From assembly GCA_003151625.1 (NCBI GenBank), contig PLYC01000007.1, positions 81,181-145,180 of the forward strand: 64,000 nt of DNA. The letters run 5' to 3'. A model generated the notes under the pieces. It was not told the origin of the DNA. It saw only the letters and a list, made by a program, of their open reading frames with translations, and made no database searches. Below are positions 9,717 through 56,851 of the stretch, piece after piece. The translations under genes were made by a program, and so were the position numbers. Positions within the stretch are counted from its first letter, which is position 1, and the number at the start of each line of letters is the position of its first letter. The stretch is from Candidatus Doudnabacteria bacterium. Its GTDB lineage: Bacteria; Patescibacteriota; Doudnabacteria; UBA920.

Positions 9717-11954
9717 TTATTCGAAATGTACAACTTTACGTTTAATTTTCTCACTCAACAAAGGATATTTTTTCAAATTTTCATCGTCTTTAAGTAGGTT
9801 AATAGCCTCCTGCCTAGCAGGTTCAATTAGCGACGTATAAGATGGGTCAAAGTATTTAAAATTCCAGCCGGACTGGGTTTGGCCGTAAATTTCGCCAAAG
9901 CCCCGCTGTTTTAGGTCCAGTTCGGCCAGCTCAAAGCCGTCTTGGGTTTTGGTAAAAGCATTAAGGCGGGTGATAGTTTCGTTATTGGCATTATCTTTCA
10001 CCACCTCCCCCCGCTTCGCGGGGTACTCCTCCTTAGAAAAGGAGGAGAGGCTCCGCCTTTGTCCAGATGACGCGGATAACCGCGGAGCTTCCCCTCCTTC
10101 TTTAAGGAGGGGTGGACGCGAAGCGGACGGGGTGGTGTACCCTGAACCGGAATTTAATGATTGGTTCAGGGCTTTAGTCATAAACAAAAAGCAATAGCTT
10201 TGGTGCTCGGCGCGGCCAACCCGGCCGCGGAACTGGTGGAGTTGGGAAAGGCCAAAACGCTCCGCGCCTTCAATTAACATTACCGATGTATTGGGCACGT
10301 CCACGCCAACTTCCACTACAGATGTTGAAACTAAAATTTGGATTTTATTATCCAAAAAATCTTTCATCACACTTTCTTTTTCCGCACCTTTTAGTCTGCC
10401 GTGCATAAGACCAATGTTAAAATTGGGAAAGATTTTTTTTAAAAGGTCGACTTCGGCTTTTGCCGATTTAACGCCCAGTTTGTCCGACTCCTCAATTAAG
10501 GGAGTGATTACAAAGACCTGTCGGCCGGCGGTTATCTGCTTAGCTATAAACTCATAGGCTTTGGCGCGGTTCTCATTTGTTACCAATTTAGTAACTATTT
10601 GTTTGCGACCTAGAGGCTTGGTTTTAATTTGCGAAATATCCAGCTCGCCGTAAACAGCCAATTGCAGAGTGCGCGGAATTGGCGTGGCGGAAAGCGAAAG
10701 CAAATGAGGGACTTTTTTCGTATTTTCAAATAAAGCCGCCCGTTGGTCTACGCCAAAGCGGTGCTGTTCGTCTATAATTACCAAAGCGAGCTTTTTAAAT
10801 TTTATGTTTTTTTGCAACAATGCGTGTGTGCCAATATACAGTGCGGGCATGCCTTCGGCGAGAAGCTTGGTTAATTTGTCTTTTTTTTCCGGTTTGTTGT
10901 TGAGCAGGCAAAAATTTGCCGTAAGCAGAGCACACCTGGTATTAAAATTGGCTGGATTTTCACAAAACATTTTATGGGCGGTTTGGTAGTGCTGTTTAGC
11001 CAAAATTTCCGTGGGCGCCAAAAGTGCCACTTGAAAGCCTTCCGATACCGCCTGCAGGGCGGCTATTAGGGCGACCACGGTTTTGCCGCTTCCAACATCA
11101 CCTTCCAATAGCCGGTTCATAGGCATGGGTTTTTCTAAGTCCTGTAAAATATCCCAGGCGGCCTTTTTTTGTTCGACGGTCAGTTTAAAAGGCAGGCTAT
11201 CTACAAATTGTTTTATAAGTGACTGATTAAATTTAATCGGATAGCTTTGTTTTTTTGCCAACTCCAGTTTATGTTTTTGCGCTAACAGCTGGTTATAAAA
11301 TATTTCCTCAAACGCCAGGCGTTTTTTTGCCTCTGTGACATTCTGCTCGGTTTCCGGGAAATGAGACTGCTTAATAGTTTGCCTAATATCCATCAGCTTT
11401 TGATTTTTGATAATTTCCGCGGGTAACGATTCCGGCACTTCATCGGCAAGTCCAATAACAGAAGCGACCAAGTTGCGGAAAGTTTTTGGGTAAAGGCTTT
11501 GTTTAAGATGATAGAGCGGTACTAATCTGGACGTGTGGATAGGGAAGTCCGATGCCTTTTCGTAAATTGGGTTTGTCATTTGTAAACCAAAGTTGTAATA
11601 GTCCGCCTGTCCGGCTAAAAATATTTCCTCCCCGGCAATTAGATTTTTTGCCAAATACGGCTGATTAAACCAGACAACTTTAATAGAGCCGGTGTCGTCA
11701 CTGACAACGGCCTCGGCCAACATCAAATGGCTTTTAAAAGAAAACCGGCTGCTGATTTGTTTGATTTTTACTTTTAAACTGACGTTTTCGCCGGGCTTTA
11801 AATCGGCAATAACGCGGGTTTGTGAAAAATCCAGGTACCGGTATGGAAAATATAAAAGTAAGTTTTGGACGGAATCAAGTCCAAGTTTTTTTAAAGCCGC
11901 TAATTGCGGCTTTTGAAGTTTGGGAAGATTTTCGATGGGGGAATTGAGCTGCAT
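9717..11954 (-). CDS. recG: ATP-dependent DNA helicase RecG
   Basis: Wedge domain, Walker A GDVGSGKT, and DEQHRFG helicase motifs. It carries a ~50-aa low-complexity in-frame insertion encoded by a palindromic element. Confidence 0.9.
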   Translation of the reverse strand: MQLNSPIENLPKLQKPQLAALKKLGLDSVQNLLLYFPYRYLDFSQTRVIADLKPGENVSLKVKIKQISSRFSFKSHLMLAEAVVSDDTGSIKVVWFNQPYLAKNLIAGEEIFLAGQADYYNFGLQMTNPIYEKASDFPIHTSRLVPLYHLKQSLYPKTFRNLVASVIGLADEVPESLPAEIIKNQKLMDIRQTIKQSHFPETEQNVTEAKKRLAFEEIFYNQLLAQKHKLELAKKQSYPIKFNQSLIKQFVDSLPFKLTVEQKKAAWDILQDLEKPMPMNRLLEGDVGSGKTVVALIAALQAVSEGFQVALLAPTEILAKQHYQTAHKMFCENPANFNTRCALLTANFCLLNNKPEKKDKLTKLLAEGMPALYIGTHALLQKNIKFKKLALVIIDEQHRFGVDQRAALFENTKKVPHLLSLSATPIPRTLQLAVYGELDISQIKTKPLGRKQIVTKLVTNENRAKAYEFIAKQITAGRQVFVITPLIEESDKLGVKSAKAEVDLLKKIFPNFNIGLMHGRLKGAEKESVMKDFLDNKIQILVSTSVVEVGVDVPNTSVMLIEGAERFGLSQLHQFRGRVGRAEHQSYCFLFMTKALNQSLNSGSGYTTPSASRPPLLKEGGEAPRLSASSGQRRSLSSFSKEEYPAKRGEVVKDNANNETITRLNAFTKTQDGFELAELDLKQRGFGEIYGQTQSGWNFKYFDPSYTSLIEPARQEAINLLKDDENLKKYPLLSEKIKRKVVHFE
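9999..10137. repeat. Complex ~139-bp GC-rich palindromic element inserted in frame within recG
   Basis: Outer stem caccacctccccccgcttcgcg / cgcgaagcggacggggtggtg, with internal hairpins (ctcctcctt-agaaa-aggaggag; cccctcctt-cttt-aaggagggg; ccgcgg x2). Confidence 0.75.
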
Positions 11955-13024: not shown

Positions 13025-14278
13025 CTACTTTACAAATTGTGGACTCGGGGGTTCAATTATAAACGAGCCGGTTACAGTGCTTGTGTCGTTAGCCGCTGTC
13101 GCGTCCGAATTGTTGTGGTAATATTGGGTGCTGCTAGAATTTTGTGAAGAAGGTTTTTTTAAATTTGCACCCGCTAGAGTGGAAGTCGCGGTTGTTGAGG
13201 TTGAACTGCTGGGCGTTTGGGTTGAGACGGCTTTAACCTCTGGCTGGTCGGTGGTGGTCGCTGTTTCAGATTGGTCACTAGAGGTAGCGGTTACAAAAAT
13301 TTGTTGGGCAATAAGTGTATCGTTGCTTTTTTCTCCAACCACGCTAACCTTGTCTCCACCCTGCAAATCGGATGGTAAAAGATTACCGCCGGAGTTATCT
13401 TGAATTGTGGTTTGTGATGTTATGTTAAAAGTAATTTGTTCCACTGTAACGCTACTGCTCGTGGCCTCGCTAATTAAACCAAAAGCCGCCACGGAATTGG
13501 GATCGGAACTTAATTTGGCCAGAGCTTCCTGGTCGTTACTGGCAACGGCTATGGTTTGCTTAATTGCCGAAAGTTTGGCTGTGTCGTTGCCTAAGGCTAA
13601 AAGGGCGCTGTTGGCTGCAGTTTTAATTTGGCTGTCCGGTTTTATCGCGCTTAAAAGGTTTTTTTGCCCCTGAGTGATGCTATCCAAAGAATTTAACAAC
13701 GGATGGCTGTCAGCCGATTTGGGATTTGCCGCCGCTACGGTATTAACTTCCGCCACGGCACTGGTGGTTTGGGCGGAAAGTTCGTTTAAGGCGGCAGTTT
13801 TTTGTTCCGTATTACTGGTAGGGTCGTTAAAAATTTGTTGCGCCGCGCTTAAGCGGTTTTGCGCGATTTGAATTTGCAAGCTGGCTTTTTGGTTTTGGTT
13901 GGAGGCCAAAATTAGTTGGAGATTTTCTTCCTGTTTTTTTAAGGGAAACAAAATTTTGCCGGGAAGACTGTTGGAAGCTTGATACGCGGTAACCGAGAAG
14001 GCGCTTATGAGCAGCATTACCGCCACGCTGACACTTGCAAATTTAGACATATGCAGCCAAGCCAGCCACAACCTTTTAGAAGGTGCCACGGCATATTTAC
14101 GGCGCATTAGCGGCGTAGGAACAATATTTTTTGGCATGGACAGAAGCTTAGAGCTAATATCCAAAAGGGGAGCGAGCTCATTTCTGTATTGGGCAAATTT
14201 AACCAGGACTTCCTCTTTGGGGGAGCCTTTTTTTATCATTTCCAGTGCCTGGTTGTAAATTTCGTCAATGTTAGTCAT
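13025..14278 (-). CDS. Putative anti-sigma factor (single-pass membrane protein, extracytoplasmic S/T/Q-rich domain)
   Basis: Overlaps the upstream ECF sigma gene by 8 bp. It has a short cytoplasmic N-terminus, one TM helix (FASVSVAVMLLISAFSVTAY) and a long extracytoplasmic region. Confidence 0.5.
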   Translation of the reverse strand: MTNIDEIYNQALEMIKKGSPKEEVLVKFAQYRNELAPLLDISSKLLSMPKNIVPTPLMRRKYAVAPSKRLWLAWLHMSKFASVSVAVMLLISAFSVTAYQASNSLPGKILFPLKKQEENLQLILASNQNQKASLQIQIAQNRLSAAQQIFNDPTSNTEQKTAALNELSAQTTSAVAEVNTVAAANPKSADSHPLLNSLDSITQGQKNLLSAIKPDSQIKTAANSALLALGNDTAKLSAIKQTIAVASNDQEALAKLSSDPNSVAAFGLISEATSSSVTVEQITFNITSQTTIQDNSGGNLLPSDLQGGDKVSVVGEKSNDTLIAQQIFVTATSSDQSETATTTDQPEVKAVSTQTPSSSTSTTATSTLAGANLKKPSSQNSSSTQYYHNNSDATAANDTSTVTGSFIIEPPSPQFVK

Positions 14279-14864
14279 TATTCTCGCTATTTTTTTTAAT
14301 AAGCTCCTGAAGTTTAATTATCGCACGATGTTGGATAACTCTTATCGCGCCCTCGTTTTTATGCAAAAGTTCGGCAATTTCATTGTTTTCCAGATCCTCC
14401 AAAAATTTTAATTTTATAACAACCTGTTGTTCCGCGCCAAGTTCTTTAAGTAATTTTAAAAAGACTTTTTGCTGATCCTGTAAATTTACAATGTCAATAA
14501 CATTGGTTTCGTATTCCAGGGTATTTTCGATTTCTTCCAGCGCGACTATGGATTTTTTTTGCCTGTAGTAATCTATAACCAAATTTCGCGCTATTTGGTA
14601 AAGCCATCCTTCAAAGGCACCACTTTCGTTAATTGAGGCAATTTTAGAAAAAGCTTTTAAAAATACATCTTCTGCCAAGTCTTCGGCAACTTCTTTGTGG
14701 CCGACACGGAAGAAAATAAAGCGGTATATCTTTTTAAAAAAAAGATTGTAAATTTCGCCAAATGCCGCTTCCTCGCCCTTTTTTGCCCTTGCAAAAAGCA
14801 GCGCAGTACTATCGGAATGGCTGAAATCTTGGGAGGTAATACTAAAGACGGAATTGATGTTCAT
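14271..14864 (-). CDS. ECF-type RNA polymerase sigma-70 family sigma factor
   Basis: Region 2 (YRFIFFRVGHKEVAEDLAEDVFLKAF) and region 4 HTH (NEIAELLHKNEGAIRVIQHRAIIKL). Confidence 0.8.
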   Translation of the reverse strand: MNINSVFSITSQDFSHSDSTALLFARAKKGEEAAFGEIYNLFFKKIYRFIFFRVGHKEVAEDLAEDVFLKAFSKIASINESGAFEGWLYQIARNLVIDYYRQKKSIVALEEIENTLEYETNVIDIVNLQDQQKVFLKLLKELGAEQQVVIKLKFLEDLENNEIAELLHKNEGAIRVIQHRAIIKLQELIKKNSENND

Positions 14865-15037
14865 TTGTTACAGGTGCTGAATATTAGGCAATAAATAGGG
14901 GATTCTGGCAATAAAGCTTAAATTTTATACCCCTTTGTCCTATTTTACCATATATTACGGTTTTTTGGCTCCTTTAGGCGCAAACGTTGAAAACAATGGG
15001 CACCATCGTGCAGCACAATGTTGCCCATTGTTTAGCG

Positions 15038-16102
15038 CTAAAGCATCGTAATCGGTCTGGACTGGGTAATATAGAATTTCCCGTTTTCAAAAGCCCACTC
15101 AATGTCCTGCGGTTTGCCGTAATGTGTTTCTATATTTTTGCAAATTTTGGCAATTTCCACTATTTGCTTGCCGGTAAGTTTTTGTTTGCCTCCGGTTGCC
15201 TTGTCTAATTTCTTATTTCTATTTCCTGTTTTCTCTCTTACTATGGCAAAAGTTTGCTCGGAAACATTTATGTCCAAAATGGAAAAATTGTTTTTGTGAA
15301 CAATATAAGTGTCCGGAGTAATCATGCCGCCGACAATAGCTTCTCCCAAACCAAAACCGGCTTCCACCACCATTTGGTTCTTGTCTTTGGTTACCGGGTG
15401 CACGGTAAAACTAATTCCGGAAACCTCGCTTTGCACCATCTTTTGCACCACAACCGCCACGGAAATCCTTGTGTTTATTCCCCTCCCTTGCTTGTCCGCC
15501 GTAGCTTTAGCGAAGGAGGGACGGGAGGGGTGGGGGGAGGGTGATTTTTTTGTTTTGTAAAACCCTTTCTCAAAAGCATAAAAAATTGCCCTGGGCGTAA
15601 ATAGCGAAGACCAGCATTTTTTTACACTGGCAATAACATTTTTTTCCGTTACATTCAAATAAGTTTCCAGCTCCCCGGCCCAGGAAGCAACCGATGAGTC
15701 CTCGGCCGTGGCGCTAGATCTAACGGCTACAAACTGGTTTATTCCCCTCCTGCCCGAGGAGGGGTTAGGGGAGGTGGGAGATTTTTTAAACAGCTGATGA
15801 TACGCCTCCATAATCTCTTTCTGCAAATCCTCCGGAATAACCTCATCCAAAATCATCCTGCGGATTTCCGCCGAAGCCTTGTCCACAGAATTAACATCCT
15901 TATGGTTGACTTTTTTCAGCAACGCCTCTATATCCGCCTCAATCTCCGTCTCCTCCAAAAATCTGTCAAAAGCACCCGCAACCACTACAAACCCTTGCGG
16001 CACCGGCAATCCCGCCTTAGTCATTTCCCCGAGCGAGGCTCCCTTGCCCCCAGCAATGTCGACATCTTTTTTTGAAATTTGCCCAAAAGTTTTTATGTGC
16101 AT
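15038..16102 (-). CDS. Stand-alone PPDK_N / PEP-synthase-type ATP-grasp (nucleotide-binding) domain protein, with two in-frame REP insertions
   Basis: GGKGASLGEM motif, VAVRSSATAED, VAVVVQKMV and DIEWAFENGKFYITQSRPIT, which are hallmarks of the PEP synthase / PPDK / rifampin-phosphotransferase ATP-binding domain. Extra segments SPTSPNPSSGRRGIN and KKSPSPHPSRPSFAKATADKQGRGINTR coincide with REP DNA. Confidence 0.8.
   Translation of the reverse strand: MHIKTFGQISKKDVDIAGGKGASLGEMTKAGLPVPQGFVVVAGAFDRFLEETEIEADIEALLKKVNHKDVNSVDKASAEIRRMILDEVIPEDLQKEIMEAYHQLFKKSPTSPNPSSGRRGINQFVAVRSSATAEDSSVASWAGELETYLNVTEKNVIASVKKCWSSLFTPRAIFYAFEKGFYKTKKSPSPHPSRPSFAKATADKQGRGINTRISVAVVVQKMVQSEVSGISFTVHPVTKDKNQMVVEAGFGLGEAIVGGMITPDTYIVHKNNFSILDINVSEQTFAIVREKTGNRNKKLDKATGGKQKLTGKQIVEIAKICKNIETHYGKPQDIEWAFENGKFYITQSRPITML
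15476..15544. repeat. REP family 1 variant (composite with the cgctaaagctacgg hairpin) inserted in frame in the PPDK_N gene
   Basis: ttattcccctcccttg...ccgccgtagctttagcgaaggaggg...acgggaggggtggggggagggtga. Confidence 0.75.
15738..15779. repeat. REP family 1 variant inserted in frame in the PPDK_N gene
   Basis: tttattcccctcc-tgcccga-ggaggggttaggggaggtggga. Confidence 0.7.
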
Positions 16103-16125
16103 AAAATTTTACTAAGCCGCCAAAT

Positions 16126-16548
16126 TCAGTTTTTCGTTAACGTGTAGGACAGGGTTATTGGGTGAATAATGGCGATATTGCGGAAATATTTAAGCTTTAG
16201 AAGATCTTTGTCCATGGTTACAATTAAATCCGCCCCTGAGGCCACGGCACATTCCAGAATTTTGTTGTCTTTGGAATTATTCTTTAAAAAAGTAATTTTT
16301 TCCTCGGGAAACATTAAATTAGGAACTTTTTTTACGAATTCCATAATTTGATTTTTTGTCAGTATGTTGACGATTTTTTCTTCCACAAGCCGTTTTGCGT
16401 TTTTTTCAACTTCTTCTATTATAGCTTCCGAAATAAACAGCGGGTACTCAAATGGCCTGCCCGATATTTTTAAAACCAAATCATAGCAAAAACTCCGCAT
16501 GCCTATGGCCGCAAGGTAGATGTTCGCGTCAAAAACTATCTTAAGCAT
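16126..16548 (-). CDS. PIN-domain toxin (VapC-like)
   Basis: 140 aa. N-terminal MLKIVFDANIY... with conserved acidic residues. Immediately downstream of a small RHH gene. Confidence 0.65.
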   Translation of the reverse strand: MLKIVFDANIYLAAIGMRSFCYDLVLKISGRPFEYPLFISEAIIEEVEKNAKRLVEEKIVNILTKNQIMEFVKKVPNLMFPEEKITFLKNNSKDNKILECAVASGADLIVTMDKDLLKLKYFRNIAIIHPITLSYTLTKN

Positions 16549-16554
16549 ATTGTT

Positions 16555-16794
16555 TTAGCCGAAGAATTTTTGGATATCTTCGTCGGTCTTTATCCCCAGC
16601 TTTTGGAATGCCGGACGCAGTACTGTCTGGATTTCATCAAGCTTTTGCTCAATAAGGTAGCTCCTTAAAGCCTGCTTAACAAGCTGGCTAAAGGTTGTGT
16701 CCTGTTTTATCGCCAATTTTTCAACATCGCTTTTCATATCATTGGGCAGGGAAATGCTGACATTGCTTGTTTGTTTTCTGTTGATAGCCTTCAT
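16555..16794 (-). CDS. Ribbon-helix-helix (CopG/VapB-like) antitoxin
   Basis: 79 aa. The beta-strand SISLPNDM followed by two helices fits an RHH fold. Lies 6 nt upstream of the PIN gene. Confidence 0.55.
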   Translation of the reverse strand: MKAINRKQTSNVSISLPNDMKSDVEKLAIKQDTTFSQLVKQALRSYLIEQKLDEIQTVLRPAFQKLGIKTDEDIQKFFG

Positions 16795-16858
16795 AAAAAT
16801 ATTTTAATAATTATTACACTGTAATAATATCAATATTAGAAATTGTTGTCAACCTACT

Positions 16859-16914
16859 GGTTAACAACTTTAGTATGCCTGAAAGATAGAAAGTTGTTAA
16901 CTAAGTTGTTAACT
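16859..16914. promoter_or_regulatory. Inverted/direct repeats gttaacaacttt / aaagttgttaac / aagttgttaac upstream of the RHH antitoxin gene (candidate operator)
   Basis: Perfect 12-bp inverted repeats plus a third direct half-site. Sits at the standard position for TA autoregulation. Confidence 0.45.
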
Positions 16915-18390
16915 TATTATTTTCCTAACAATTCCTTTATTTGCATCCACTTCCACCAATTCGCCGTCTTTAAAATTTTTCATAGCGTTGTTTAAGGCGA
17001 CAATGCAGGGAATGCCAAATTCTCGGGAAACAACTGCCGCGTGGCATGTTAGGCCGCCGACTTCGGTAATTATGGCCGCCGCGCGTTTCATTGCCGGAAG
17101 ATAATCGGTCGTCGTTGCGTAAGTAACTAATATATCGCCCTGTTTAACTTTGCCGTTGTCTTTGGGGTAGGGGACAATACGGATTTTTCCCGTGGCTTTT
17201 CCGGGACTGGCGCAAACCCCTTTATTTTCATCCCCACCCTGAACTGGCTTTACATAACTTTCTATGTACTTAAAAAGTTTTTCGGTTTCTTTGGCTGTAA
17301 ATTCAATCCGTTTTTGGATTTTTCTGTCAAAGCCCCAACCCGCGTATTTGCCCTTTTCTTGAAGCAGTTTAACGGTATCTATTTTTCCCAGTAAGGCTTC
17401 AATTAGTTCCTGTTCAGTTAAAGTCCGTAATTGATTAACAGACAAAAAAAGCCTTTTTGCTATTTCATCGTATAAAGGCAGTAAATAAAAACTCCCAAAG
17501 CTGACAAAATATTCCGCTTCGTTCCTGGTGTCAATGGCTAACCCAAAATCTGTAAATATTTGCAAGTCTTTGGGTTTAAATTTGTACTTATTAATTAAAT
17601 GTTTGATTTCTCGAGCCCTTATTTTAGTATAGTTTTTTATCTGCCCGTATTCTTTATTCAATAGATTCAAGGGCTTACTTAAGTTTACTTTTAGTTCTTG
17701 CTGGTAGTGTTTGGCTTGCCAAGGTTCGCCAAAAGTGAATACCGGTAACCAGCCAAATTTTTTAGCCAATTTTTTTGAAGCTTTATCTAAAGTTGTTGCA
17801 CCATTTTTTATACATAGTATTTCTTCGGTAACCGCCATTTTTTCTTTTAAGGTGGTTGACACTTCTTGTGGTTTGGTAAGTTTAAACAAAACTTGGTTAT
17901 AATCTTCGGAGCCTCTCCGTAGCCCGTATTTATTAACTAAAACTTTTTCCATTAAAGGTGGCCAGTATTCATCCCCAAGCCACGCGAACTGGTCATAAAC
18001 AGCCAGATGTTGAATACGATCGCGAATAAGGCGGAAGTGTTTAATTAGTTGCCAGTTAGTTAGTTTAGAAAAATCAATTTTTTTTGAAACATCTTTTTTT
18101 GATTTGGGAACCAAATTGTAGAAAGTTTTAAGCTTCTTTTCCATGCCTTTAAAATTTTTTGAAGATATCTTTCCAATCCGATTATGCAAGATCTCCAAAT
18201 AGCTTTTGGGCGTGTACATATGCTGGTAACCGTCAGCCAAAGTATGTATGGCTAAGTTGCCTTTGGGAATGCCAAAAAGCTTTTTAAAGTAATGATTCGT
18301 GTTCTCCCCGTGCCACGTTTCACTGTCCAGAGGCAACAAAGCCCATTGGCCCATTTTTACGACCTTGGTTTTAAAGTAGTGGTGTTTCAT
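16909..18390 (-). CDS. RPH/PEP-synthase-family protein: unknown ~390-aa N-terminal domain fused to a C-terminal PEP-utilizing-enzyme mobile (phosphohistidine swivel) domain
   Basis: C-terminus [26 protein letters not shown]...[10 protein letters not shown] is the PEP-utilizers His domain. No ATP-grasp or TIM-barrel domain is present. Paralogous to the adjacent gene. Confidence 0.7.
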
Positions 18391-19892
18391 AGTTTTTTTA
18401 CTATCCCTTTATTCGCGTCCACTTCCACCAAGTCGCCATCTTTTAAAATTTTAGTGGCGATTTTGGTGCCAATTACGCAGGGGATGCCGAGTTCACGGGA
18501 GACTATGGCGGCGTGGGAGGTTATGCCGCCTTGTTCTGTTACTATTGCTCCTGCCAGCTTCATCGCCGGTACTATATCGGGATCTGTTGCGATTGAAACT
18601 AAAATGTCTCCCTTGTTCATTTTGTGGATGTCCTTGGCGCGCAATATAAGTTTAACAACGCCTTTGGCATATCCCGGCTGGGCGGTTTGGCCTATCAGCT
18701 CTTTTTGGTTTTTATCAAAAATACGGCCTAAATTTTTGGTAAGTTTTTTTAAAGTTGAACCGGTATAAATGGCCTCAAAATCTTTTTCTGTGTAAAGAAC
18801 GCATTCTTTAAACCTATTTTGCAAGTCTTTTTTGCTTAAAATTTTACCTCTCAGCAACGCTTCCTTAACCTCGCCGTAAAGCATAAACTGGACTTGGTAG
18901 CGCGTGCGGTTAAGCCTTTTGGCTATTTCCGGCAATAGGGAAGTGTGCATTGAGTAAAGGCAAAACAGCTGGGCATGGCGGCGCACCAGTTTGGTTAAGG
19001 CAAAACCCTGGGCTGTGGTAAAAAGATTCCGGTATTGTTTGGAAATATTGTATTTTTTGTATATGGCCGCTTGTTTGTTTTTTGCTGATTTTAGTTGAGC
19101 CCTCTCTTTTTTTAATATTCCATTGGCGCTAATGCCGCTTGATGCCAAATCTTGCAGTTCTTTTAGGTAGTGCTCCGGACCAAATGGTTTTACATTCCCC
19201 GCGTAAATATAGCCTAAGTGCCCCCATTTGGCGCTGTGTATTTTTAAAGCCGTCTTAAATTCCTCGTCGGGTTTTTTGAGCGATTTTTTGTATTTATTAT
19301 AGATATTCAAAAAATCCTCCCTCTCCTGGGCGACTATGGTTTTTTGGGAGGGGGTGGTTAAAACAATAAAAGCATTTTCCGCGTCCTGTTTGCTGTCGCA
19401 AACCGAATACAGGTAGCTTTTTAGGTTTTTGGTAAAGTTATTATGGAACATATCTACAGCCACAGGCAGCCAGCCGTAGGTGTAGAGTTTGGTGTGAATT
19501 TTGTCCTGCTCCGCGTAAAGTTCCCAAAGATGCTTATTGGAGTATTTTTGCAATGGCAGTTTGGAAGTTTTTTTAGAAAAATTAATTAGGACGTAAGACC
19601 ATTTTAAAATATTTTCATTTAAATTTTTTCCAAAATTTGGCCTTGTGAGTAAAGCTTTTAGTACGCTCTCGCCGACCAAAAAAGAATCCTTTTCTCCCAA
19701 ATAAAAATCCATATGGAATTTTTTGTAATGGGTGAGGACTTTGCTGTAATTTTTTAGGAATGGGTAGCTGGTGTCGCTGCAAAAAGCCGACATTGGAATT
19801 TGGAAAAAGAACACATCGCTGTCCGGAATTTCCTCGGCCAACAGCCATGGGTCTTTGTCTTGTAAAAATTTTGGGGTGGGAGATTTGGGCAT
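18387..19892 (-). CDS. Paralogous RPH/PEP-synthase-family protein (unknown N-terminal domain plus PEP-utilizer His domain)
   Basis: C-terminus [26 protein letters not shown]...[13 protein letters not shown]. It overlaps the downstream paralog by 4 bp. Confidence 0.7.
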
Positions 19893-19909
19893 AATTGCAA
19901 CTCCATTCC

Positions 19910-20003
19910 GGCGTCATTCTGAGCGAGTGCATCCGAGCGAAGAATCTCTAACAAGAATGAGATCCTTCACCTTTCGGCTGCACTCAAGGTTCAGGATGAC
20001 GCC
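19910..20003. mobile_element. MITE-like nested palindromic element, family 2 (termini ggcgtcaTtctga ... tcaggatgacgcc)
   Basis: ~94 bp. A second copy lies at 60719-60809, with shared termini and inner gaagaatctcta...atgagatccttc...cggctgcactc blocks. No ORF is present. Confidence 0.65.
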
Positions 20004-20055
20004 GAAGTGAGAATAATACGCTATAAATATAGCAATATTAATGATTTTTCGCATA

Positions 20056-20085
20056 TTGACAGGAGAGGCTAAAATATGATATAAT
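20056..20085 (+). promoter_or_regulatory. Consensus sigma70-type promoter (TTGACA-18-TATAAT) reading into the GC-rich island
   Basis: ttgacaggagaggctaaaatatgatataat. Confidence 0.55.
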
Positions 20086-20315
20086 ATTAGGTTATAGCTT
20101 ATGCTATAAATTGCCCATTTTACAGGTTCAGGGCGATTTTTGGCTAACTATAATTCCCTCCTTCGCTAAAGCTACGGAGGGCAAGTGGGTTTTGAGGCTC
20201 TTTAACAATTTGAGGAAAACTTTATTCTCCTTTTGGGGGTACCGACGGCGATTGATTGCTTATGTAATCTGTTGCCATTGGTACCCCGAATTCTGAATTT
20301 CAATAGGAGAAGTTT

Positions 20316-21002
20316 ATGCGGTCCCCCGAAACGGCAGTTGAGATGCAAGAAAAGAAGTTTGAAATTCCGAGCGGCGTCGAGCGCGCCGTTCTAATGATTC
20401 GCCACTCGGTTGCGCCGAAAACGGGCACCGATGGCAACAAGACGCTGACGCTCGACGGCATGTATTTGTGTGAGGCTGTGCGGGAGTTCTACCAGAGTTT
20501 GGTATGTGATATCAGCGTCAGCCTCAACGTGCCCACGGCCTCGTATCACTGCTCTACGTTCCCCAGGTCCATGATGACGGCGTGGGAAATCTTCCGCGTC
20601 CCGAACATCCAGGCCGAAGAGTCGCTCAAGGTCTGGGTCTCGTTGATGTCTATCGACGGAGGCGCGTGGGCCAAGGCGCAGATGGCTGCGGGCAAGAACG
20701 AGCCGACGATGATCCGAGAGTTCCTCGGTGACCAGGGCGTGAGTTTGTGGACTGCCGACTTCGACGACTACCAACGCAACTACACCGAGTTCATTCTCGG
20801 CAACGTCGGTAGCGAAGAAGCTCGCAGAGCCAAGTTCGTGGTTGCGACGTGCCACGAGGCAGGCATTTCGCTGGCGGCCGCTGGTTGTCTGCTTGAGAAT
20901 GAGCTCGGCCTTAATAATTGCGAGGCGGTCCTCTTTTACGTCAGCGGCGGTTACGTCGTCGGTGCCGAGAAGATCGTGCCGGGAAAGGCCTCGGCTCGGT
21001 AA
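20316..21002 (+). CDS. Hypothetical protein in GC-rich island; possible histidine-phosphatase-superfamily member (RHS motif)
   Basis: Local GC ~57% against a ~43% background. AGGAGA ribosome-binding site. N-terminal ...VLMIRHSVAP... loosely resembles the RHG catalytic motif of the PGAM-like fold. The antisense 209-aa ORF is R-rich and is probably a shadow of this gene. Confidence 0.45.
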   Translation: MRSPETAVEMQEKKFEIPSGVERAVLMIRHSVAPKTGTDGNKTLTLDGMYLCEAVREFYQSLVCDISVSLNVPTASYHCSTFPRSMMTAWEIFRVPNIQAEESLKVWVSLMSIDGGAWAKAQMAAGKNEPTMIREFLGDQGVSLWTADFDDYQRNYTEFILGNVGSEEARRAKFVVATCHEAGISLAAAGCLLENELGLNNCEAVLFYVSGGYVVGAEKIVPGKASAR

Positions 21003-21210
21003 CACTACCAAGCGGCACAAGCCGTGTAGTACCCCCTCAGTTTTTCCTCAGCAAAAATCTTCAGATCCATCCCACAGGCGGGCGGCGGAGGTTTCAAGGT
21101 ACACAAAAACCCTTGAACCCTTCCCGCCCGCTTTTTTCATGGACTTTAATTAAAAGATAATATTTTTTTGCCTCTCGGCTACAGCCCGCTACGCGAGCTT
21201 CGCTCGGGAC

Positions 21211-21241
21211 AAAAAAATCTGAACAAATGTTCAGATTTTTT
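21211..21241. terminator. Bidirectional intrinsic terminator beside the tRNA-Ser 3' end
   Basis: aaaaaaatctgaac-aaat-gttcagattttttt. Confidence 0.7.
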
Positions 21242-21333
21242 TGGCGGAGAGGGGGGGATTCGAACCCCCGAAAGGATTTGACTCCTTTACCGGTTTAGCA
21301 AACCAGCGCACTAGGCCTCTATGCGACCTCTCC
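21242..21333 (-). tRNA. tRNA-Ser (anticodon GCT)
   Basis: Acceptor GGAGAGG/CCTCTCC, anticodon stem-loop CTGGT-TTGCTAA-ACCGG, a long variable arm, T-loop GGGTTCGAATCCC, and an encoded CCA. Confidence 0.85.
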
Positions 21334-21459
21334 AGAAATATATTTAAGTTGTGAGATTTAAGATTTGTAATCCACAAATCCATAATATTTTATCAGAATT
21401 ATAAGTTTCTGACAACAGGGCGGATTTGCCAATTAATTAAGCTTTGCTAAACTTTAGGT

Positions 21460-22233
21460 ATGTGGAATGAACACAATTACAATCTAGAAGAAATAAAAGT
21501 TGTGCGGGAGTTTGAATATTTGTATTTTATGTACAATCCCGGCTTTCGGGCTATGTGGCACAATAATTTTGAAGAGTATTTTAAAGGTACACAGGACGAA
21601 AAGTATTGGGAAAAGCGGGAAGAGGAGAGGGAAAAGGAAATTAGGGCGGATGTTGAATATAATATGAGAACCGATCCCGAGTATGCCAGTTGGCGGGCGG
21701 AGTTGGCGATTATTGAGGAAACGTTGTTAGGCGATCCAAATGAGTCCTATATTGCGCAGTCGCGTTGGTTTGAGCGCGAACAGATGATGAAAGAAGCGGA
21801 AAAGGCAGATTGGGAGTATCGTAGTAAACTGGAAAATGATCGTCTTTATAAAATGGCCAAAGATTGGAGTATGTCTTTGCTTAAGGTCGCCGGACCCGCT
21901 TATGAAAAAAATAAGGATATTAACTGGTTTAGGGTTTTAACTAATTGTTTATCGGTTTCCGGAAAAATTGTTTTTGCATCCCGCGAGTTTGGCGATGACG
22001 AGGAAGACGAACTTTACAGTACGCCGGATGATTTTTTGTGGCGGACAGACAGGATTGGTTACATTTTGTCGCTTGCTTCCTTGCAGCGATGTTTGGAATC
22101 GTTCCGAACACTTAAGGAAAAGGATCCAGGCTTGAAGGTTGATAAGTTTATTACCGACAGTTTAACAATGCAAGCCGAATTAATAGACCGTTTAGAAGAA
22201 ATCCAACAAAAATTTTTAAAAAAATATAATTAA
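21460..22233 (+). CDS. Hypothetical cytosolic protein (W/E/R-rich)
   Basis: 257-aa ORF with no recognisable motif. Confidence 0.4.
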   Translation: MWNEHNYNLEEIKVVREFEYLYFMYNPGFRAMWHNNFEEYFKGTQDEKYWEKREEEREKEIRADVEYNMRTDPEYASWRAELAIIEETLLGDPNESYIAQSRWFEREQMMKEAEKADWEYRSKLENDRLYKMAKDWSMSLLKVAGPAYEKNKDINWFRVLTNCLSVSGKIVFASREFGDDEEDELYSTPDDFLWRTDRIGYILSLASLQRCLESFRTLKEKDPGLKVDKFITDSLTMQAELIDRLEEIQQKFLKKYN

Positions 22234-22240
22234 TATATCT

Positions 22241-22266
22241 GTGTCCAATTCTATAGAATTGGACAC
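22241..22266. promoter_or_regulatory. 26-bp perfect palindrome gtgtccaattctatagaattggacac (candidate ArsR-family operator) overlapping the annotated GTG start
   Basis: A perfect dyad immediately upstream of the likely ATG (22277) of the ArsR-family gene. A near-identical dyad lies at 22573-22594. Confidence 0.6.
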
Positions 22267-22276
22267 AAAAAACAAA

Positions 22277-22555
22277 ATGAATAATAAAAATATCCACAAA
22301 TGGTCAAGGATTTTTAGAGGACTGGCTAACCCTCACCGTTTGGAAATGATAAAGCTTTTAAAGAAGAATGGTAAAACCGCGGTTTCGGTTTTGGCCAAAG
22401 AAGTGGGAATTTCCGTAAAAAACACCCCCCGGAATTTAAGAATATTACACGACTTGGAAATATTGGAGTCTTTGGGAAAATCGGACCATATTTTTTATAG
22501 TATTTATACCGGCCTGGATAAAGAAGTGAATTTGATTATAAAAATGTTTGCTTGA
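22277..22555 (+). CDS. ArsR/SmtB-family winged-helix transcriptional regulator
   Basis: LANPHRLEMIKLL matches the ArsR hallmark (LADPTRLxIL) followed by an HTH. The start is more likely ATG 22277 than the GTG at 22241 inside the operator. Confidence 0.7.
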   Translation: MNNKNIHKWSRIFRGLANPHRLEMIKLLKKNGKTAVSVLAKEVGISVKNTPRNLRILHDLEILESLGKSDHIFYSIYTGLDKEVNLIIKMFA

Positions 22556-22572
22556 ATGCTTTAGGCTTTGGT

Positions 22573-22594
22573 ATCCAATTCTATAGAATTGGAT
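22573..22594. promoter_or_regulatory. Second copy of the tccaattctatagaattgga dyad (22-bp perfect palindrome) between convergent arsR-like and comF genes
   Basis: atccaattctatagaattggat. Confidence 0.55.
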
Positions 22595-22605
22595 GCAAGA
22601 GAGTC

Positions 22606-23343
22606 CTAGTCTCTGGCAACGGTAAGGCAGATGACTTTTGCCGCGCCGTTTCTTTTTAATACTTTGGCTGCTTCGGCCAGGGTGGCGCCGGTGGTGGTGA
22701 CGTCATCGACCAGAATGAAGGGGTGATTTAAGACTTCAGATTTATGATTTAAGGCCCAGGGGGACAGCGCGAAGGCTCCGTCTACGTTTTTGAGACGGGC
22801 GTCTTTTTTTAGGTCTTTTTGGGTTTTGGTTATTTTTTTTCTTTGTAAAACATCGGCAACAGGTAAATTTAGCTGTTCCGACAATGAACGACATAAAACC
22901 TCGGCTTGGTTAAAGCCGCGCCAGCGTTTACGGGTACTGTGCAAAGGGACAGGGATCAACGAGATATTGGATATTAGGATATTAGGATATTGGGTTTTGA
23001 GTTGCCCGGCTAAAAGTTTTCCGAGTTCCTCATAAATCCCGGGGAGGAAATTATATTTGCCTTTTATTAATATGTCCGCGACTTTTTGGTCGTGGTAGTT
23101 TAAAAACGATATTAAACCGTCCGCGCCGTGCGGAGTTTGGCAGTGGGGATGGGTAAGGCCAAACGGGGTATTTTTTTGGCAGACAATACAGCGCTGGTGT
23201 TCAAGCTTCCCTATTGTAGACTTACAATCCGCACAAATCCACGTTCCTTCCTCTCCGCAGGCCAGGCAGGAAATAGGGAAGAGGGTGTCAAGGACGAAAG
23301 TTTTAACATCAAGGTATAAAGGTTTTATAAAAGTTTGGTACAT
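22606..23343 (-). CDS. comFC: ComF-family protein (phosphoribosyltransferase-like competence protein ComFC) with N-terminal zinc finger
   Basis: CLACGEEGTWICADC...C-x2-C zinc finger. C-terminal PRTase motif ILVDDVTTTGATL. It contains an in-frame aatatcctaatatc tandem at 22961-22992. Confidence 0.75.
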   Translation of the reverse strand: MYQTFIKPLYLDVKTFVLDTLFPISCLACGEEGTWICADCKSTIGKLEHQRCIVCQKNTPFGLTHPHCQTPHGADGLISFLNYHDQKVADILIKGKYNFLPGIYEELGKLLAGQLKTQYPNILISNISLIPVPLHSTRKRWRGFNQAEVLCRSLSEQLNLPVADVLQRKKITKTQKDLKKDARLKNVDGAFALSPWALNHKSEVLNHPFILVDDVTTTGATLAEAAKVLKRNGAAKVICLTVARD

Positions 23344-34015: not shown

Positions 34016-35564
34016 ATCTTCAAAAGAATACCAGCCCGTCATTGGGTTTGAAATACACGTAGAGCTTGCGACAAAGAGCAAGATGTTTTCTCCGGCCGCG
34101 AATAATCCGGACGAGAAGACGCCGAATGTAAATATTGACGAGATAGTTACGGCCCAGCCCGGGACTTTGCCTGTGGCTAACAAAGAAGCTATTAGGTTGG
34201 CGGCTTTAGTGGGGCTGGCTTTGAATTGTACGATTGATGAATGGAGCAAATTTGACCGCAAACATTATTTTTACCCGGATTTGCCAAAGGGCTATCAAAT
34301 ATCACAGTACGACCAGCCGATATCCAGAGCAGGATATTTGGATATTGAGATATTGGATATTAAGGGGCAGAAAAAAACCAAAAGAATTGGAATCACGCGG
34401 GCTCACTTAGAAGAAGATGCCGGAAAAAATATCCATCCGGAAGGTTTGCCTTATTCGTTGGTGGATTATAACCGTGCCGGTTGCGCTCTGCTGGAAATTG
34501 TTACGGAGCCGGATATAGAAAGTGGGGAAGAGGCTAAGGCCTTTTTAACCGAATTGAGAAATATTATCCGCTATCTCGGTGCTTCTGACTGTGATATGGA
34601 AAAGGGGACTATGCGCTGTGAGCCAAATATCAGCGTTCGAAAACCGGGCGAAACAACTTTGCCAAAGTATAAGTGCGAAGTAAAGAACATCAACTCTTTT
34701 AAATTTGCCGAGGCGGCCATAAATTACGAAATTGCCAGGCATACGGAAATGTTAAAAGAAGGCAAAATGCCGAAACAGGTAACCATGGGCTGGAACGAAA
34801 AAGAAGGTGTAACAGTGGAGCAAAGGGTGAAAGAAGATGCCAACGATTACCGTTATTTTCCGGAGCCGGATTTGCCGGTACTGCAATTTACCAAAGAATA
34901 CTTGGATAAGTTACGAAGCCAAATTCCCGAACTGCCGGCGCAAAAGCGCAAACGCTTTTTGGAAGAATTTGCTTTGCCAGAGGCGGATGTGGAAAATATT
35001 ATAAACTGGAAAGAATTGGCTAGTTATTTTGAGGAAGTTGTCAGCGAAATACAAGAATGGAAATTGGTAGATATTGACCCGTCTCGACTTGGCGGCGCTG
35101 ATAAGCGAGCCGAGGTGGATGGAAATTGGGAAATTAATGGCGCGATAAAACAGGCGGTAAACTGGCTGCTTGGAGATTTTAGCGCGTTGTTAAATGCAAA
35201 GCTTATAAATCCGTCCGACTCCCGTGTTAACCCGGAAAATTTCGCGGAATTAATGAAGTTGATTCTTCAGGGAAAAATTTCCGGCAGCGCGGCTAAAACC
35301 GTGTTTAAAGTAATGTTTGAAAAAGGCGGCGAACCATTATCCATCGTAAACGATTTAGGCCTTCATCAGGTTAGTGACATTGGTGCTATTGAAACCGCTA
35401 TCGATAAAATAATTACGGCCAATGTTAAAGCCGTAACCGACTACAAAACCGGCAACGAAAAATCTTTTGGCTTTTTAGTCGGCCAAACAATGAAAGAGTT
35501 AAAAGGCAAAGGCAACCCGCAGGTAATAAATGAGTTGCTAAAGAAAAAATTAATTACACCATAA
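34002..35564 (+). CDS. gatB: Asp/Glu-tRNA amidotransferase subunit B
   Basis: N-terminal PVIGFEIHVEL and a GatB/YqeY C-terminal domain. Confidence 0.95.
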   Translation: MKEFKSSKEYQPVIGFEIHVELATKSKMFSPAANNPDEKTPNVNIDEIVTAQPGTLPVANKEAIRLAALVGLALNCTIDEWSKFDRKHYFYPDLPKGYQISQYDQPISRAGYLDIEILDIKGQKKTKRIGITRAHLEEDAGKNIHPEGLPYSLVDYNRAGCALLEIVTEPDIESGEEAKAFLTELRNIIRYLGASDCDMEKGTMRCEPNISVRKPGETTLPKYKCEVKNINSFKFAEAAINYEIARHTEMLKEGKMPKQVTMGWNEKEGVTVEQRVKEDANDYRYFPEPDLPVLQFTKEYLDKLRSQIPELPAQKRKRFLEEFALPEADVENIINWKELASYFEEVVSEIQEWKLVDIDPSRLGGADKRAEVDGNWEINGAIKQAVNWLLGDFSALLNAKLINPSDSRVNPENFAELMKLILQGKISGSAAKTVFKVMFEKGGEPLSIVNDLGLHQVSDIGAIETAIDKIITANVKAVTDYKTGNEKSFGFLVGQTMKELKGKGNPQVINELLKKKLITP

Positions 35565-35610
35565 AATCAATTTGGAAGAGGGGACACCTCTTCCATATGT
35601 GAAATGATCA

Positions 35611-35654
35611 ACGCCGCGAGGTGTTCTGCAGAAAGCTTCTGCAGACCTCGCGGC
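35611..35654. other. 44-bp nested perfect palindrome (cgccgcgagg-tgtt-ctgcagaa-agc-ttctgcag-ac-cctcgcggcg)
   Basis: 10-bp outer stem with an 8-bp inner stem. Sits at the 3' end of the minus-strand island gene. Confidence 0.6.
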
Positions 35655-35660
35655 GTTATG

Positions 35661-35993
35661 CTATCGGCGGGTATATTCGATGACATTTGCCACGATGATG
35701 GAACCGCGCCATGTGTGTGTGCTTGGGGCCGGAGTAGCCGGAACTTCCGGTCCAATCTGGCCGGTACATTGCGAGCAGCGGCCGTCGAGAAGCTTTTCCC
35801 GACCCCCACAATTCTCGCAGGGCTCGGGTTGAGTGGCGGCTTCAGAACCGATTCCGCAGGAAAGTTCAAATGCTTCGTCTGTACTCATTTCCGGCGATAT
35901 CGGCACTTCGTTGCCGTCCTTGGATATGTGAAGCTTTCCGTCCGGAGCCAATGTGGCAGTGCCGATTTCCTGGCCACGATATGTAGCTATCAT
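35661..35993 (-). CDS. Hypothetical small protein with Cys-rich motif (CENCGG...CSQC), in a GC-rich insert
   Basis: Strong ribosome-binding site (AAGGAGG 6 nt upstream). Local GC ~58%. Flanked by palindromes and a bidirectional terminator. Confidence 0.5.
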   Translation of the reverse strand: MIATYRGQEIGTATLAPDGKLHISKDGNEVPISPEMSTDEAFELSCGIGSEAATQPEPCENCGGREKLLDGRCSQCTGQIGPEVPATPAPSTHTWRGSIIVANVIEYTRR

Positions 35994-36045
35994 TCGGCCT
36001 CCTTATGGGAGGAAGTATATATAGATGAGTTAAAAGTTGCAAATA

Positions 36046-36082
36046 GAAAAAAGTCCAATAGTCGCGACTATTGGACTTTTTG
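36046..36082. terminator. Bidirectional intrinsic terminator (miaA / island)
   Basis: aaaaaagtccaatagtcgcgactattggactttttg. Confidence 0.75.
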
Positions 36083-36083
36083 A

Positions 36084-54859: not shown

Positions 54860-55195
54860 ATGAGCCTAAAAAAAGCTTATCTCTACCTGGTTTCCACTAT
54901 TGCTTTAGTCATCACGGTCATTGGCGCGATTATGATAATAAATTTGGGGCTTAAAGCCTGGGTCTTTACCAAGGCAGACCAGAATTATTACCCCTACCCT
55001 TGTACCCAGCCTGTAGCTGACGTGAGCGGCAAATCCGTTCCTTGCGATCAGGCAACTATTGACGCACAAAAGAAACAGGCCCAAGACAATCAAGCCTCCC
55101 AAAGGCAAAACACCGCTGCCCAAGCCCTGGCTATGATAATAGTAGCCACGCCGGTTTGGTGGTTCCACTGGAGACTGGCGAAAAGAGAACAGTAA
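54860..55195 (+). CDS. Small hypothetical membrane protein
   Basis: 111 aa with two TM helices. Confidence 0.35.
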   Translation: MSLKKAYLYLVSTIALVITVIGAIMIINLGLKAWVFTKADQNYYPYPCTQPVADVSGKSVPCDQATIDAQKKQAQDNQASQRQNTAAQALAMIIVATPVWWFHWRLAKREQ

Positions 55196-56754: not shown

Positions 56755-56810
56755 AAAAGTTTTTATATAAAAATTGATTCCGTTTAGTTTTTTGCCATCA
56801 TGAACCCCTG

Positions 56811-56851
56811 TAGTTTCCCCTCCCTTAACGGGAGGGGCTAGGGGGAGGGTG
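56811..56851. repeat. REP family 1 copy
   Basis: tagtttcccctcccttaacgggaggggctagggggagggtg. Confidence 0.8.

Follow-up and report, generated by a model that had tools for sequence, protein, structure and literature searches.

The histidine phosphatase SixA removes the phosphoryl group from phosphohistidine (pHis) intermediates of phosphotransfer proteins (PMC6282199, PMC7948535, PMC12934123), and a two-component kinase of the split phosphoenolpyruvate (PEP)-synthase type has been described (PMC12167813). The boxA element, whose consensus GYTCTTTAANA was derived experimentally (PMC5725501), is known to precede ribosomal RNA (rRNA) genes, CRISPR arrays and several protein-coding genes, suhB among them (PMC5725501, PMC7665894). 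Likenesses to these systems meet at a single gene of a 64-kb stretch of DNA from Candidatus Doudnabacteria, the whole of which is referred to here as the window. The gene encodes a 228-residue protein (coding sequence, CDS, 20316–21002, plus strand) and is situated in the segment 20004–21241, which the initial annotation had described as a GC-rich island of foreign origin inserted at the 3' end of the tRNA-Ser(GCT) gene. As far as the literature searches show, no histidine phosphatase tied to split PEP-synthase-like systems has been described.

The GC-rich stretch is probably one self-contained gene that has long resided at this site in a Doudnabacteria-like lineage of the candidate phyla radiation (CPR; Patescibacteria). 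It resembles tRNA-linked genomic islands in its atypical composition beside a tRNA gene and in its variable neighbourhood. However, it lacks an integrase and an attachment (att) repeat, it is present at the same site in all relatives that cover it, in three of which it is positioned 5' of the tRNA, only its CDS is atypical, and its composition is at equilibrium.

Composition and residence of the GC-rich gene

The mean GC content of the window is 43.3%, in agreement with the background of ~43% given by the initial annotation. The strongest GC peak of the window (59.8%) is located at 20501–21000, and on a finer scale the GC content climbs from ~20340 and drops off at ~21100. The segment had been described as a GC-rich (~57%) island of 1.2 kb; this holds for the CDS (58.5%), whose GC content is matched by no other 687-nt stretch of the window, but not for the segment as a whole (50.8%), its leader (20004–20315, 36.9%) or its trailer (21003–21241, 46.9%). 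The GC content of the CDS at the three codon positions is 0.56/0.44/0.76, a strong three-base periodicity. For the 54 other window genes the third-position value (GC3) averages 0.462 (standard deviation 0.053, maximum 0.566), and the 0.76 of the CDS is therefore an outlier (z = 5.6); the anomaly of the open reading frame (ORF) withstands sliding-window and codon-usage analysis. Codon choice is displaced throughout relative to the other window genes, for example AAG (0.90 versus 0.25), TTC (0.78 versus 0.17) and ACG (0.73 versus 0.18). The excess is driven by GC3, which rules out amino acid composition as its source, and codon bias due to high expression was rejected because the genes of ribosomal proteins L11 and L1 have GC3 values of 0.52 and 0.45, respectively.

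A search with the adjacent 501-residue PEP-utilizer protein identified sister genomes annotated as Candidatus Doudnabacteria, a CPR lineage, with 64–71% identity. Every related locus that covers the site contains a histidine-phosphatase-like gene of ~180–230 codons, divergent from the PEP-utilizer gene. Homologous GC-rich genes occupy the site in the loci numbered L002, L007, L008, L009, L014 (two tandem copies), L015, L016, L019 and L028. The site genes of the relatives have 53–63% GC and GC3 of 0.58–0.84, with flanks of 37–50% GC, and no empty site was found among the close relatives. In L002, L007 and L014 the tRNA-Ser(GCT) gene lies downstream of the GC-rich gene and is co-directional with it, which places the gene 5' of the tRNA; therefore, the tRNA unit is inverted in the window. 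No integrase or recombinase domain is present among the ORFs of 12–26 kb, as the initial annotation had stated, and no flanking direct repeat surrounds the segment. Nor is the tRNA 3' end repeated at the far boundary, the sole other match being the separate tRNA-Ser(TGA) gene at 12798. The gene has no PHROG or PADLOC match and no relative of the family was found on viral contigs, and a phage or defence origin was rejected for these reasons. An 18-mer of the leader recurs in the viral contig L027 as a chance match within a coding region. From a metagenome scan with the protein alignment, a single partial locus (L018) was gained.

In these CDSs, high GC3 has been maintained and is no relic of import. 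At four-fold sites of residues conserved between homologs, the identity is 0.28–0.52 compared with 0.30–0.37 expected from composition alone, and the GC content of four-fold sites (GC4) is 0.65–0.86 in every lineage compared, in host genomes of 37–50% GC. As synonymous sites are mostly saturated and GC4 is still high, the gene is not a recent import awaiting amelioration.

The sense frame is coding. Identity between homologs is 0.67–0.85 at codon positions 1 and 2 and 0.40–0.60 at position 3, indel lengths are divisible by three, and no homolog has a broken frame. A 209-residue ORF on the opposite strand (20391–21020, minus strand) had been taken as a sign of foreign DNA. The ORF exists, but it is a by-product of the high GC3, which makes TTA, CTA and TCA rare in the sense frame. 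The codon-aligned antisense frame contains 1–3 stop codons in several homologs and is interrupted in L002, L007, L016 and L019. Because of these stops, and because substitutions follow the sense frame, the antisense ORF was ruled out as a gene.

These data bear on two alternative views of the segment. A recent islet that came from a GC-rich donor in another phylum, entered at the tRNA-Ser(GCT) 3' end and later lost its integrase would be in keeping with the strongly atypical codon usage, the contact of the gene with the tRNA 3' end in the window, its own promoter and terminators, and the variation of the tRNA-side region among relatives. Nonetheless, this view fails because orthologs of similar GC content sit at the same position in all related loci that cover it, including the tRNA-Ser locus of sister genomes where an empty site had been anticipated. 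Moreover, the orthologs in L002, L007 and L014 are on the 5' side of the tRNA, no att repeat or integrase accompanies the gene, the high GC is limited to the CDS, and synonymous sites have become saturated while GC remained high. The closest homologs, for which another phylum had been proposed, are all in the same lineage context and none is viral. A recent insertion is thus very unlikely. Alternatively, the segment could be mainly a structured or dual-function RNA, or the antisense ORF could be the real gene, with the 228-residue ORF incidental. GC-rich islands near tRNAs with rRNA-operon-like leaders are typical of stable RNAs in AT-rich genomes, the CDS folds somewhat better than shuffled sequences (z = -3.7, 20 shuffles), and the long antisense ORF does exist. 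Against this stand the three-base periodicity, the concentration of substitutions at codon position 3, the triplet indels in a frame that is never broken, the confident protein model with its conserved catalytic site described below, the lack of an Rfam match and the broken antisense frame of four homologs. This alternative is therefore the least credible of those considered, and the segment is treated below as a protein-coding gene.

A divergent histidine phosphatase beside phosphotransfer genes

The ATG start codon at 20316 is backed by a strong Shine-Dalgarno (SD) sequence, AGGAGAA, with a spacer of 6 nt; the start codons of the homologs are ~9–11 residues further on in the alignment. The 228-residue protein alone has no match in Pfam, NCBIfam, PADLOC or PHROG. 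A search of 5.8 billion proteins yielded only four homologs with 57–70% identity, and a profile search of 1.84 billion cluster representatives yielded 69 relatives (representatives at 50% identity), nearly all of 190–240 residues. At E <= 0.1 the PF00300 model matches only 3 of 58 family members. However, when the 58-member profile was compared with the Protein Data Bank (PDB), the first matches were SixA-like, namely Alr0221 (PDB accession number 3f2i, E value 5e-5) and SixA (4hbz, 2e-4), with PGAM5 and phosphoserine phosphatases further down. The alignment to the SixA-like chains places RHS on RHG, S-x-F-P-R-S-x-x-T on S-P-L-x-R-A-x-Q-T, and C-H-E-A on G-H-E-P. The nucleophile motif R29-H30-S31 thereby coincides with the RHG of 3f2i and 4hbz, the arginine being present in 54 and the histidine in 49 of the 58 members. 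R84 within the second motif and H180-E181 within the third are kept in 46/58, 51/58 and 53/58 members, respectively.

The AlphaFold2 (AF2) model computed from 55 sequences has a predicted local distance difference test score (pLDDT) of 93.8 and a predicted template modelling score (pTM) of 0.90; it was used in place of an earlier 5-sequence prediction of poor quality (pLDDT 61). A Foldseek comparison of the model with the PDB returned histidine phosphatases for all of the best 50 matches, with a best E value of 2.6e-7, a probability of 1.0 and template modelling (TM) scores of 0.58–0.66. The loose RHS histidine-phosphatase motif noted in the initial annotation is thus borne out by the SixA-like profile matches and by the PGAM-type fold of the model. 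Profile and model indicate that the product is a small cytoplasmic enzyme of the histidine phosphatase superfamily, a divergent SixA/PGAM-like protein closest to the SixA type with the predicted Arg-His, Arg and His-Glu set intact. The likeness to SixA-like phosphatases of branch 1 (PF00300; 3f2i and 4hbz) comprises the small single-domain alpha/beta PGAM fold, the R-H motif after strand 1, the S-x-x-x-R-x-x-x-T motif and the (G)-H-E-(P) motif. In contrast, the window protein is only ~12–18% identical in sequence to these phosphatases, it has RHS for RHG and HEA for HEP, and it contains ~60 additional residues of helical insert.

A cluster resembling split PEP synthase and rifamycin phosphotransferase (RPH), assigned by Pfam, NCBIfam and PDB matches, is divergent from the GC-rich gene (15038–19892, minus strand). 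It encodes a PPDK_N ATP-grasp protein (15038–16102) and two proteins of ~500 residues (493 residues, 16909–18390, and 501 residues, 18387–19892) with a C-terminal phospho-His swivel (PEP-utilizers) domain, all on the minus strand. The phosphatase family is found beside or inside such clusters in at least 10 loci (L002, L007, L008, L014, L015, L019, L021, L022, L025 and L028), where they encode a stand-alone PPDK_N ATP-grasp protein and several swivel-domain proteins with variable N-termini, sometimes fused to HAD phosphatases. The separate PPDK_N protein and the proteins with a variable N-terminus and a C-terminal His swivel domain recall the split PEP-synthase-like two-component kinases and RPH, but the N-terminal domains of the window proteins have no recognisable family. 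Given the fold, the catalytic residues and the conserved context, the role of the enzyme is most likely that of a pHis phosphatase for the neighbouring split PEP-synthase-like proteins; it would strip the phosphoryl group from the phospho-His of the swivel domains of the adjacent kinases or from their phosphorylated products.

The cluster itself varies. A PIN_3 toxin and ribbon-helix-helix (RHH) antitoxin pair is located inside it at 16126–16800, and the corresponding place in L002 is taken by DUF5674, by HATPase_c_2/DUF4325 and by a 128-residue swivel-only protein; therefore, the whole cluster is a variable region. A hairpin of the repetitive extragenic palindrome (REP) type, CTTCGCTAAAGCTACGG, is located in frame inside the PPDK_N gene (15440–15580, minus strand) as part of an insertion of ~27 residues, KSPSPHPSRPSFAKATADKQGRGINTR. 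This insertion also occurs in L002, is absent from L021 and L025, and coincides exactly with the point at which homology to PEP synthase is lost. The window has a second insertion of 16 residues in the same protein, SPTSPNPSSGRRGINQ, in common with L002 only.

Leader, terminators and surrounding features

The promoter of the gene is a consensus sigma-70 promoter with a TG extension of the -10 hexamer (TTGACA, 18-nt spacer, TG-TATAAT; 20056–20085, plus strand); its 12/12 match bears out the textbook TTGACA-18-TATAAT promoter reported by the initial annotation. It is preceded by an AT-rich block resembling an UP element (20017–20055, plus strand) with the conserved sequence ATAAATATAGCAAT at 20023–20036, whose 11-mers are common to 5–6 other leaders. 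The pattern TTGACA-17/18-TG-TATAAT was found in 11 of the 13 boxA-leader genes scanned, the window gene included, and the pattern search was blank at L019 and L015; the promoter of L028 is near-consensus (TTGACT). The predicted transcript begins with a 5'-terminal stem-loop (20092–20153, plus strand; leader fold z = -5.7), followed by a REP hairpin, CCCTCC-TTCGCTAAAGCTAC-GGAGGG (20156–20181, plus strand), which is located where a boxB-like hairpin would be expected and is absent from L002.

A boxA-like element, GCTCTTTAACAAT (20197–20209, plus strand), follows. It fits the NusB/NusE site consensus GYTCTTTAANA, which was taken from PMC5725501; no rRNA locus is present in the window or in the loci of the relatives compared. 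Its core, GCTCTTTAACA (20197–20207), is 112 nt past the -10 hexamer, and across the leaders the motif GTTCTTTAAMAAT is located ~95–140 nt downstream of the promoter. The distance from the motif to the start codon is long and variable, 116–258 nt in the leaders scanned. The boxA motif is the most widely shared 11-mer of the leaders: allowing for 1 mismatch, 11 of 13 other leaders contain it, compared with no more than 3 in shuffled controls, and it persists in leaders that are not otherwise alignable. At least 10 leaders match GYTCTTTAANA exactly. Variants are GTTCTTTTTAAGA in L009 and GTTCTTTGAAAAT in L016, the latter presumably resembling a boxA variant of the Firmicute type. The motif is non-palindromic and invariably found on the transcribed strand; a GU-rich tract often comes after it, as with boxC in rRNA operons.

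Downstream of the motif, an anti-SD sequence, UUCUCCU (20225–20232), a hairpin (20233–20290) and the SD sequence AGGAGAA (20304–20311) are predicted to form an SD-sequestering helix (20225–20311, plus strand). The hairpin keeps 22 pairs across 6 sequences, 4 of them with compensatory changes, and its loop tolerates a nested insertion in L004 and L018. The layout of anti-SD, hairpin and SD recurs in 7–8 of 12 leaders, with hairpins of unrelated sequence in L003, L014 (both copies), L016 and partly L008. Rfam searches at gathering and permissive thresholds over 19900–21400, 35500–36150 and 56700–57650 returned only tRNA and noise.

The leader therefore resembles, as judged from its sequence, the boxA/Nus leaders of rRNA, of suhB (Baniulyte 2017, PMC5725501) and of CRISPR arrays (Stringer 2020, PMC7665894) in the exact GYTCTTTAANA on the transcript, the strong upstream promoter, the hairpin before and the GU-rich tract after the motif in many leaders of the phosphatase family, the conservation of the motif in orthologous leaders, and the presence of a NusG gene, in the window at 52438–52983. 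It differs from them in that the motif precedes a phosphatase family gene not known to be Nus-linked, lies 96–240 nt upstream of the start codon, and is joined to an SD-sequestering hairpin and a GC3-rich CDS in a CPR bacterium.

Between the start codon of the PEP-utilizer gene and the promoter there is a hairpin element, GTCATTCTGAGCG... (19904–20009), with inverted repeats, which resembles REPs or miniature inverted-repeat transposable elements (MITEs) and is absent from L002. It belongs to a widespread hairpin type, GTCATTCTGAGCG...CGAAGAATC, with related copies in the leaders of L015, L007 and L009. Compared with L002, the window has thus gained small REP/MITE insertions at 19904–20009 and 20156–20181. 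REP-like hairpins had been listed by the initial annotation and are indeed present, CTTCGCTAAAGCTACGG and TTTCCCCTCCCTTNACGGGAGGGGCTAGGGG in 3 copies each, the latter including those at 56814 and 57468.

At the downstream end, the gene has a strong intrinsic terminator, GGCGGGCGGCGGAGG...CCUUCCCGCCCGC with a U6 tract after it (21077–21137, plus strand), which is conserved in L002 and partly in L004. A perfect palindrome, CAAAAAAATCTGAACA/TGTTCAGATTTTTTTG (21210–21243), with 16-nt arms and A7/T7 flanks resembles a bidirectional terminator, and a REP-like hairpin (21171–21208) is placed between the two terminators. The palindrome touches the 3' end of the tRNA-Ser(GCT) gene (21242–21333, minus strand), as previously described; the tRNA has its own promoter (21415–21387), and the unit is inverted with respect to L002, L007 and L014. 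On the far side of the tRNA, an AT-rich gene pair precedes a ComF-like gene (22606–23343). The pair encodes a 257-residue protein without a family (21460–22233) and a 104-residue ArsR/Csa3-like helix-turn-helix (HTH) protein (22241–22555). In L014 the tRNA-Ser and ComF-like genes are directly adjacent. The variable insert is thus the AT-rich pair on the far side of the tRNA and not the GC-rich gene. A 28-nt palindrome, GTGTCCAATTCTATAGAATTGGACAC, brackets the HTH gene at 22241–22268 and 22571–22598 (89% identical); the two copies may serve as operators or mark where a small mobile unit ends.

The tRNA-Ser(GCT) locus of L002 (10900–11160) appears nested. A 5' half-copy (10900–10941) is followed by an inverted repeat, CCCCGCACCAATTTT, a complete variant tRNA-Ser (10988–11079), AAAATTGGTGCGGGG, and a 3' half-copy with a degenerate C9T9 acceptor at its end. 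This arrangement could be a real rearrangement or insertion, or an assembly artefact. In L007, a tract of ~400 nt on the downstream side of its GC-rich gene (900–1300, minus strand) is also GC-rich (55–57%), apparently non-coding and packed with hairpins, with no Rfam match at the gathering threshold.

Two further regions, 35566–36040 and 56852–57464, had been proposed as inserts of similar composition. Their GC content is only 51–53% and the GC3 of their best ORFs is 0.55–0.58, close to the normal-range maximum of 0.566. The first contains a Cys-rich ORF of 110 residues (35661–35993, minus strand; CxxC...CxxC, zinc-ribbon-like) between gatB and miaA, with a consensus SD and a strong terminator hairpin at 35610–35657. 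Its GC1, GC2 and GC3 (the first, second and third codon positions) are 0.59, 0.54 and 0.55, and its GC excess stems from amino acid composition. The second contains two small minus-strand ORFs (GC3 0.55–0.58) and is bracketed by direct copies of TTTCCCCTCCCTTNACGGGAGGGGCTAGGGG. The Cys-rich ORF with its strong SD and the REP bracketing were thus correctly described, but the composition of the two regions is mild and unrelated to that of the phosphatase gene. Neither region has a boxA, a consensus promoter, or a Pfam/PHROG or Rfam match, and given the mild GC3 and the lack of a boxA and a consensus promoter they do not represent the same phenomenon.

Elsewhere in the window, the genes of ribosomal proteins L11 and L1 (53445–56179) are split by a Band_7/SPFH gene (54023–54781) and a DUF5671 gene (54860–55195); the rplK-rplA pair is normally contiguous. 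A TraG-type P-loop ATPase (44–1891) is followed by an ORF of 1071 residues (1983–5198) without a family match and of odd composition (GC2 0.50, GC3 0.39), and the two may belong to a conjugation or type IV secretion-like module.

Mosaicism of the locus and upkeep of GC

The proteins encoded at the site fall into two subfamilies that are only 15–20% identical. Type A comprises the window protein and those of L002–L005, L018, L019 and L028, and type B comprises those of L007, L008, L009, L014 (both copies), L015 and L016. Between L005 (type A) and L007 (type B), the leaders are 69% identical over 457 nt and the trailers 84% identical over 121 nt, and the CDS is not shared. The window and L002 are 95% identical at the nucleotide level over 13411–16124 (DUF5667 protein, extracytoplasmic function (ECF) sigma factor and PPDK_N) and 88% identical in the adjacent PEP-utilizer gene, with 80% identity in the leader, 81% in the trailer and 64% in the CDS (57% at the amino acid level). 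The order is reversed in the comparison with L018, where the CDS is 82%, the leader 71% and the adjacent gene half 70% identical; the history of the CDS is therefore decoupled from that of its flanks. L014 contains two tandem cassettes with near-identical leaders. No template repeat of the CDS of the kind used by diversity-generating retroelements (DGR) was found elsewhere in the window, only REP matches. Since the CDS diverges fastest and leaders and trailers are shared between CDS types, these alignments point to a locus probably shaped by cassette-like recombinational exchange or by differential loss of tandem paralogs, as in the L014 array.

Several further observations bear on how GC is maintained. 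GC3 is 0.54 in L020 and 0.38 in L021, neither of which has the promoter and boxA module, and in the more distant L022–L026 it is only moderately raised. In the ~20 contexts examined, the flanks never reach the GC content of the gene. Host GC and gene GC3 are not significantly correlated (n = 11). Candidate forces that keep GC3 high are selection on the mRNA tied to its mode of expression and GC-biased conversion. Avoidance of Rho by way of a G>C skew gave no signal and was rejected as the cause. The PEP-utilizer paralogs are just as mosaic and yet have normal GC3, so neither recombination nor biased gene conversion accounts for the GC content by itself, and the case for conversion as a sufficient cause is weakened accordingly.

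In the probable account of the locus as a long-resident phosphatase gene, the expression parts are the UP-like block, the extended -10 promoter, a structured leader of ~225 nt with the boxA-like motif, the anti-SD/SD helix, the CDS and the intrinsic terminator. The boxA would recruit Nus factors, as in rRNA, CRISPR and suhB leaders, leading to Rho-independent transcription of a poorly or conditionally translated mRNA or to translation coupled to Nus occupancy. A number of observations weigh against this account: the window protein is under the curated Pfam/NCBIfam threshold, with no His_Phos_1 match, and its likeness to SixA depends on a profile with modest E values; the fold score of the CDS stems from just 20 shuffles; the G>C skew signature of Rho avoidance was not found; the adjacent mosaic PEP-utilizer paralogs have normal GC3 (0.39 and 0.47); and the boxA is further from the start codon than in suhB. 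In addition, the consensus boxA is matched once in the window, where 0.65 chance matches are expected; the significance of the motif is due to its conservation across leaders and not to this single match. A more far-reaching reading, speculative and rather unlikely, is that a dedicated rRNA-style (boxA/Nus) slot drives a hypervariable, recombination-shuffled pHis phosphatase gene, the GC bias of which is kept by selection linked to this mode of transcription. The selection on GC may then act via Rho-independent or translation-uncoupled expression or via mRNA stability in a background of AU-targeting RNases.

Two competing explanations concern parts of the main account. According to one, GTTCTTTAAMAAT is not a Nus boxA but is recognised by a processing enzyme or by some other regulator that binds RNA or DNA, and the leader is a family-specific translational operator or riboregulator. 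The long and variable distance to the start codon, the SD-sequestering structure after the motif, which could be the real regulatory element, and the lack of an Rfam match for the leader are in its favour, and it is a possibility to be taken seriously. Nonetheless, it is an unlikely one in view of the exact fit of at least 10 leaders to an experimentally derived consensus, the invariable location of the non-palindromic motif on the transcribed strand, often followed by the GU-rich tract known from boxC, and its standing as the single most conserved element of otherwise unalignable leaders. According to the other, CDSs from an unsampled high-GC reservoir (such as GC-rich relatives, plasmids or CPR phages) are recurrently swapped in situ into a conserved slot by homologous recombination, and their GC content reflects the reservoir and not local selection. 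The divergence of the CDS from L002 far in excess of that of the flanks, the reversed order in L018, the untranslated regions common to L005 and L007 around different CDS types and the tandem L014 cassettes with near-identical leaders would all follow from such replacement. However, in ~20 sampled contexts the flanks never match the gene in GC content, viral relatives were not found, and there are only ~69 cluster representatives, those examined being in CPR-like PEP-utilizer contexts. The exchange would also require breakpoints exactly at the CDS borders every time, and this explanation is rather improbable.

The family represents an uncharacterised and very divergent branch of histidine phosphatases, with ~69 clusters and without a Pfam model. 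Its link to split PEP-synthase-like genes in CPR bacteria suggests a role in pHis turnover, open to test, for two groups of genes annotated as hypothetical. If the boxA-like motif were confirmed as a Nus site, boxA control of protein-coding genes would extend to Patescibacteria, and the locus would offer a natural system for studying the upkeep of a GC-rich CDS. Should the reading with selection linked to boxA/Nus transcription be true, it would reveal a previously undescribed coupling of Nus-type antitermination with codon composition, and the phosphatase and PEP-utilizer locus would be an arms-race or regulatory hotspot. The gene is a clean counter-example to the reflex by which a GC-atypical gene beside a tRNA is considered a horizontally acquired island: its atypical composition is an equilibrium property of one family, kept in many genomes through complete synonymous turnover, and would be mislabelled by island callers based on composition.

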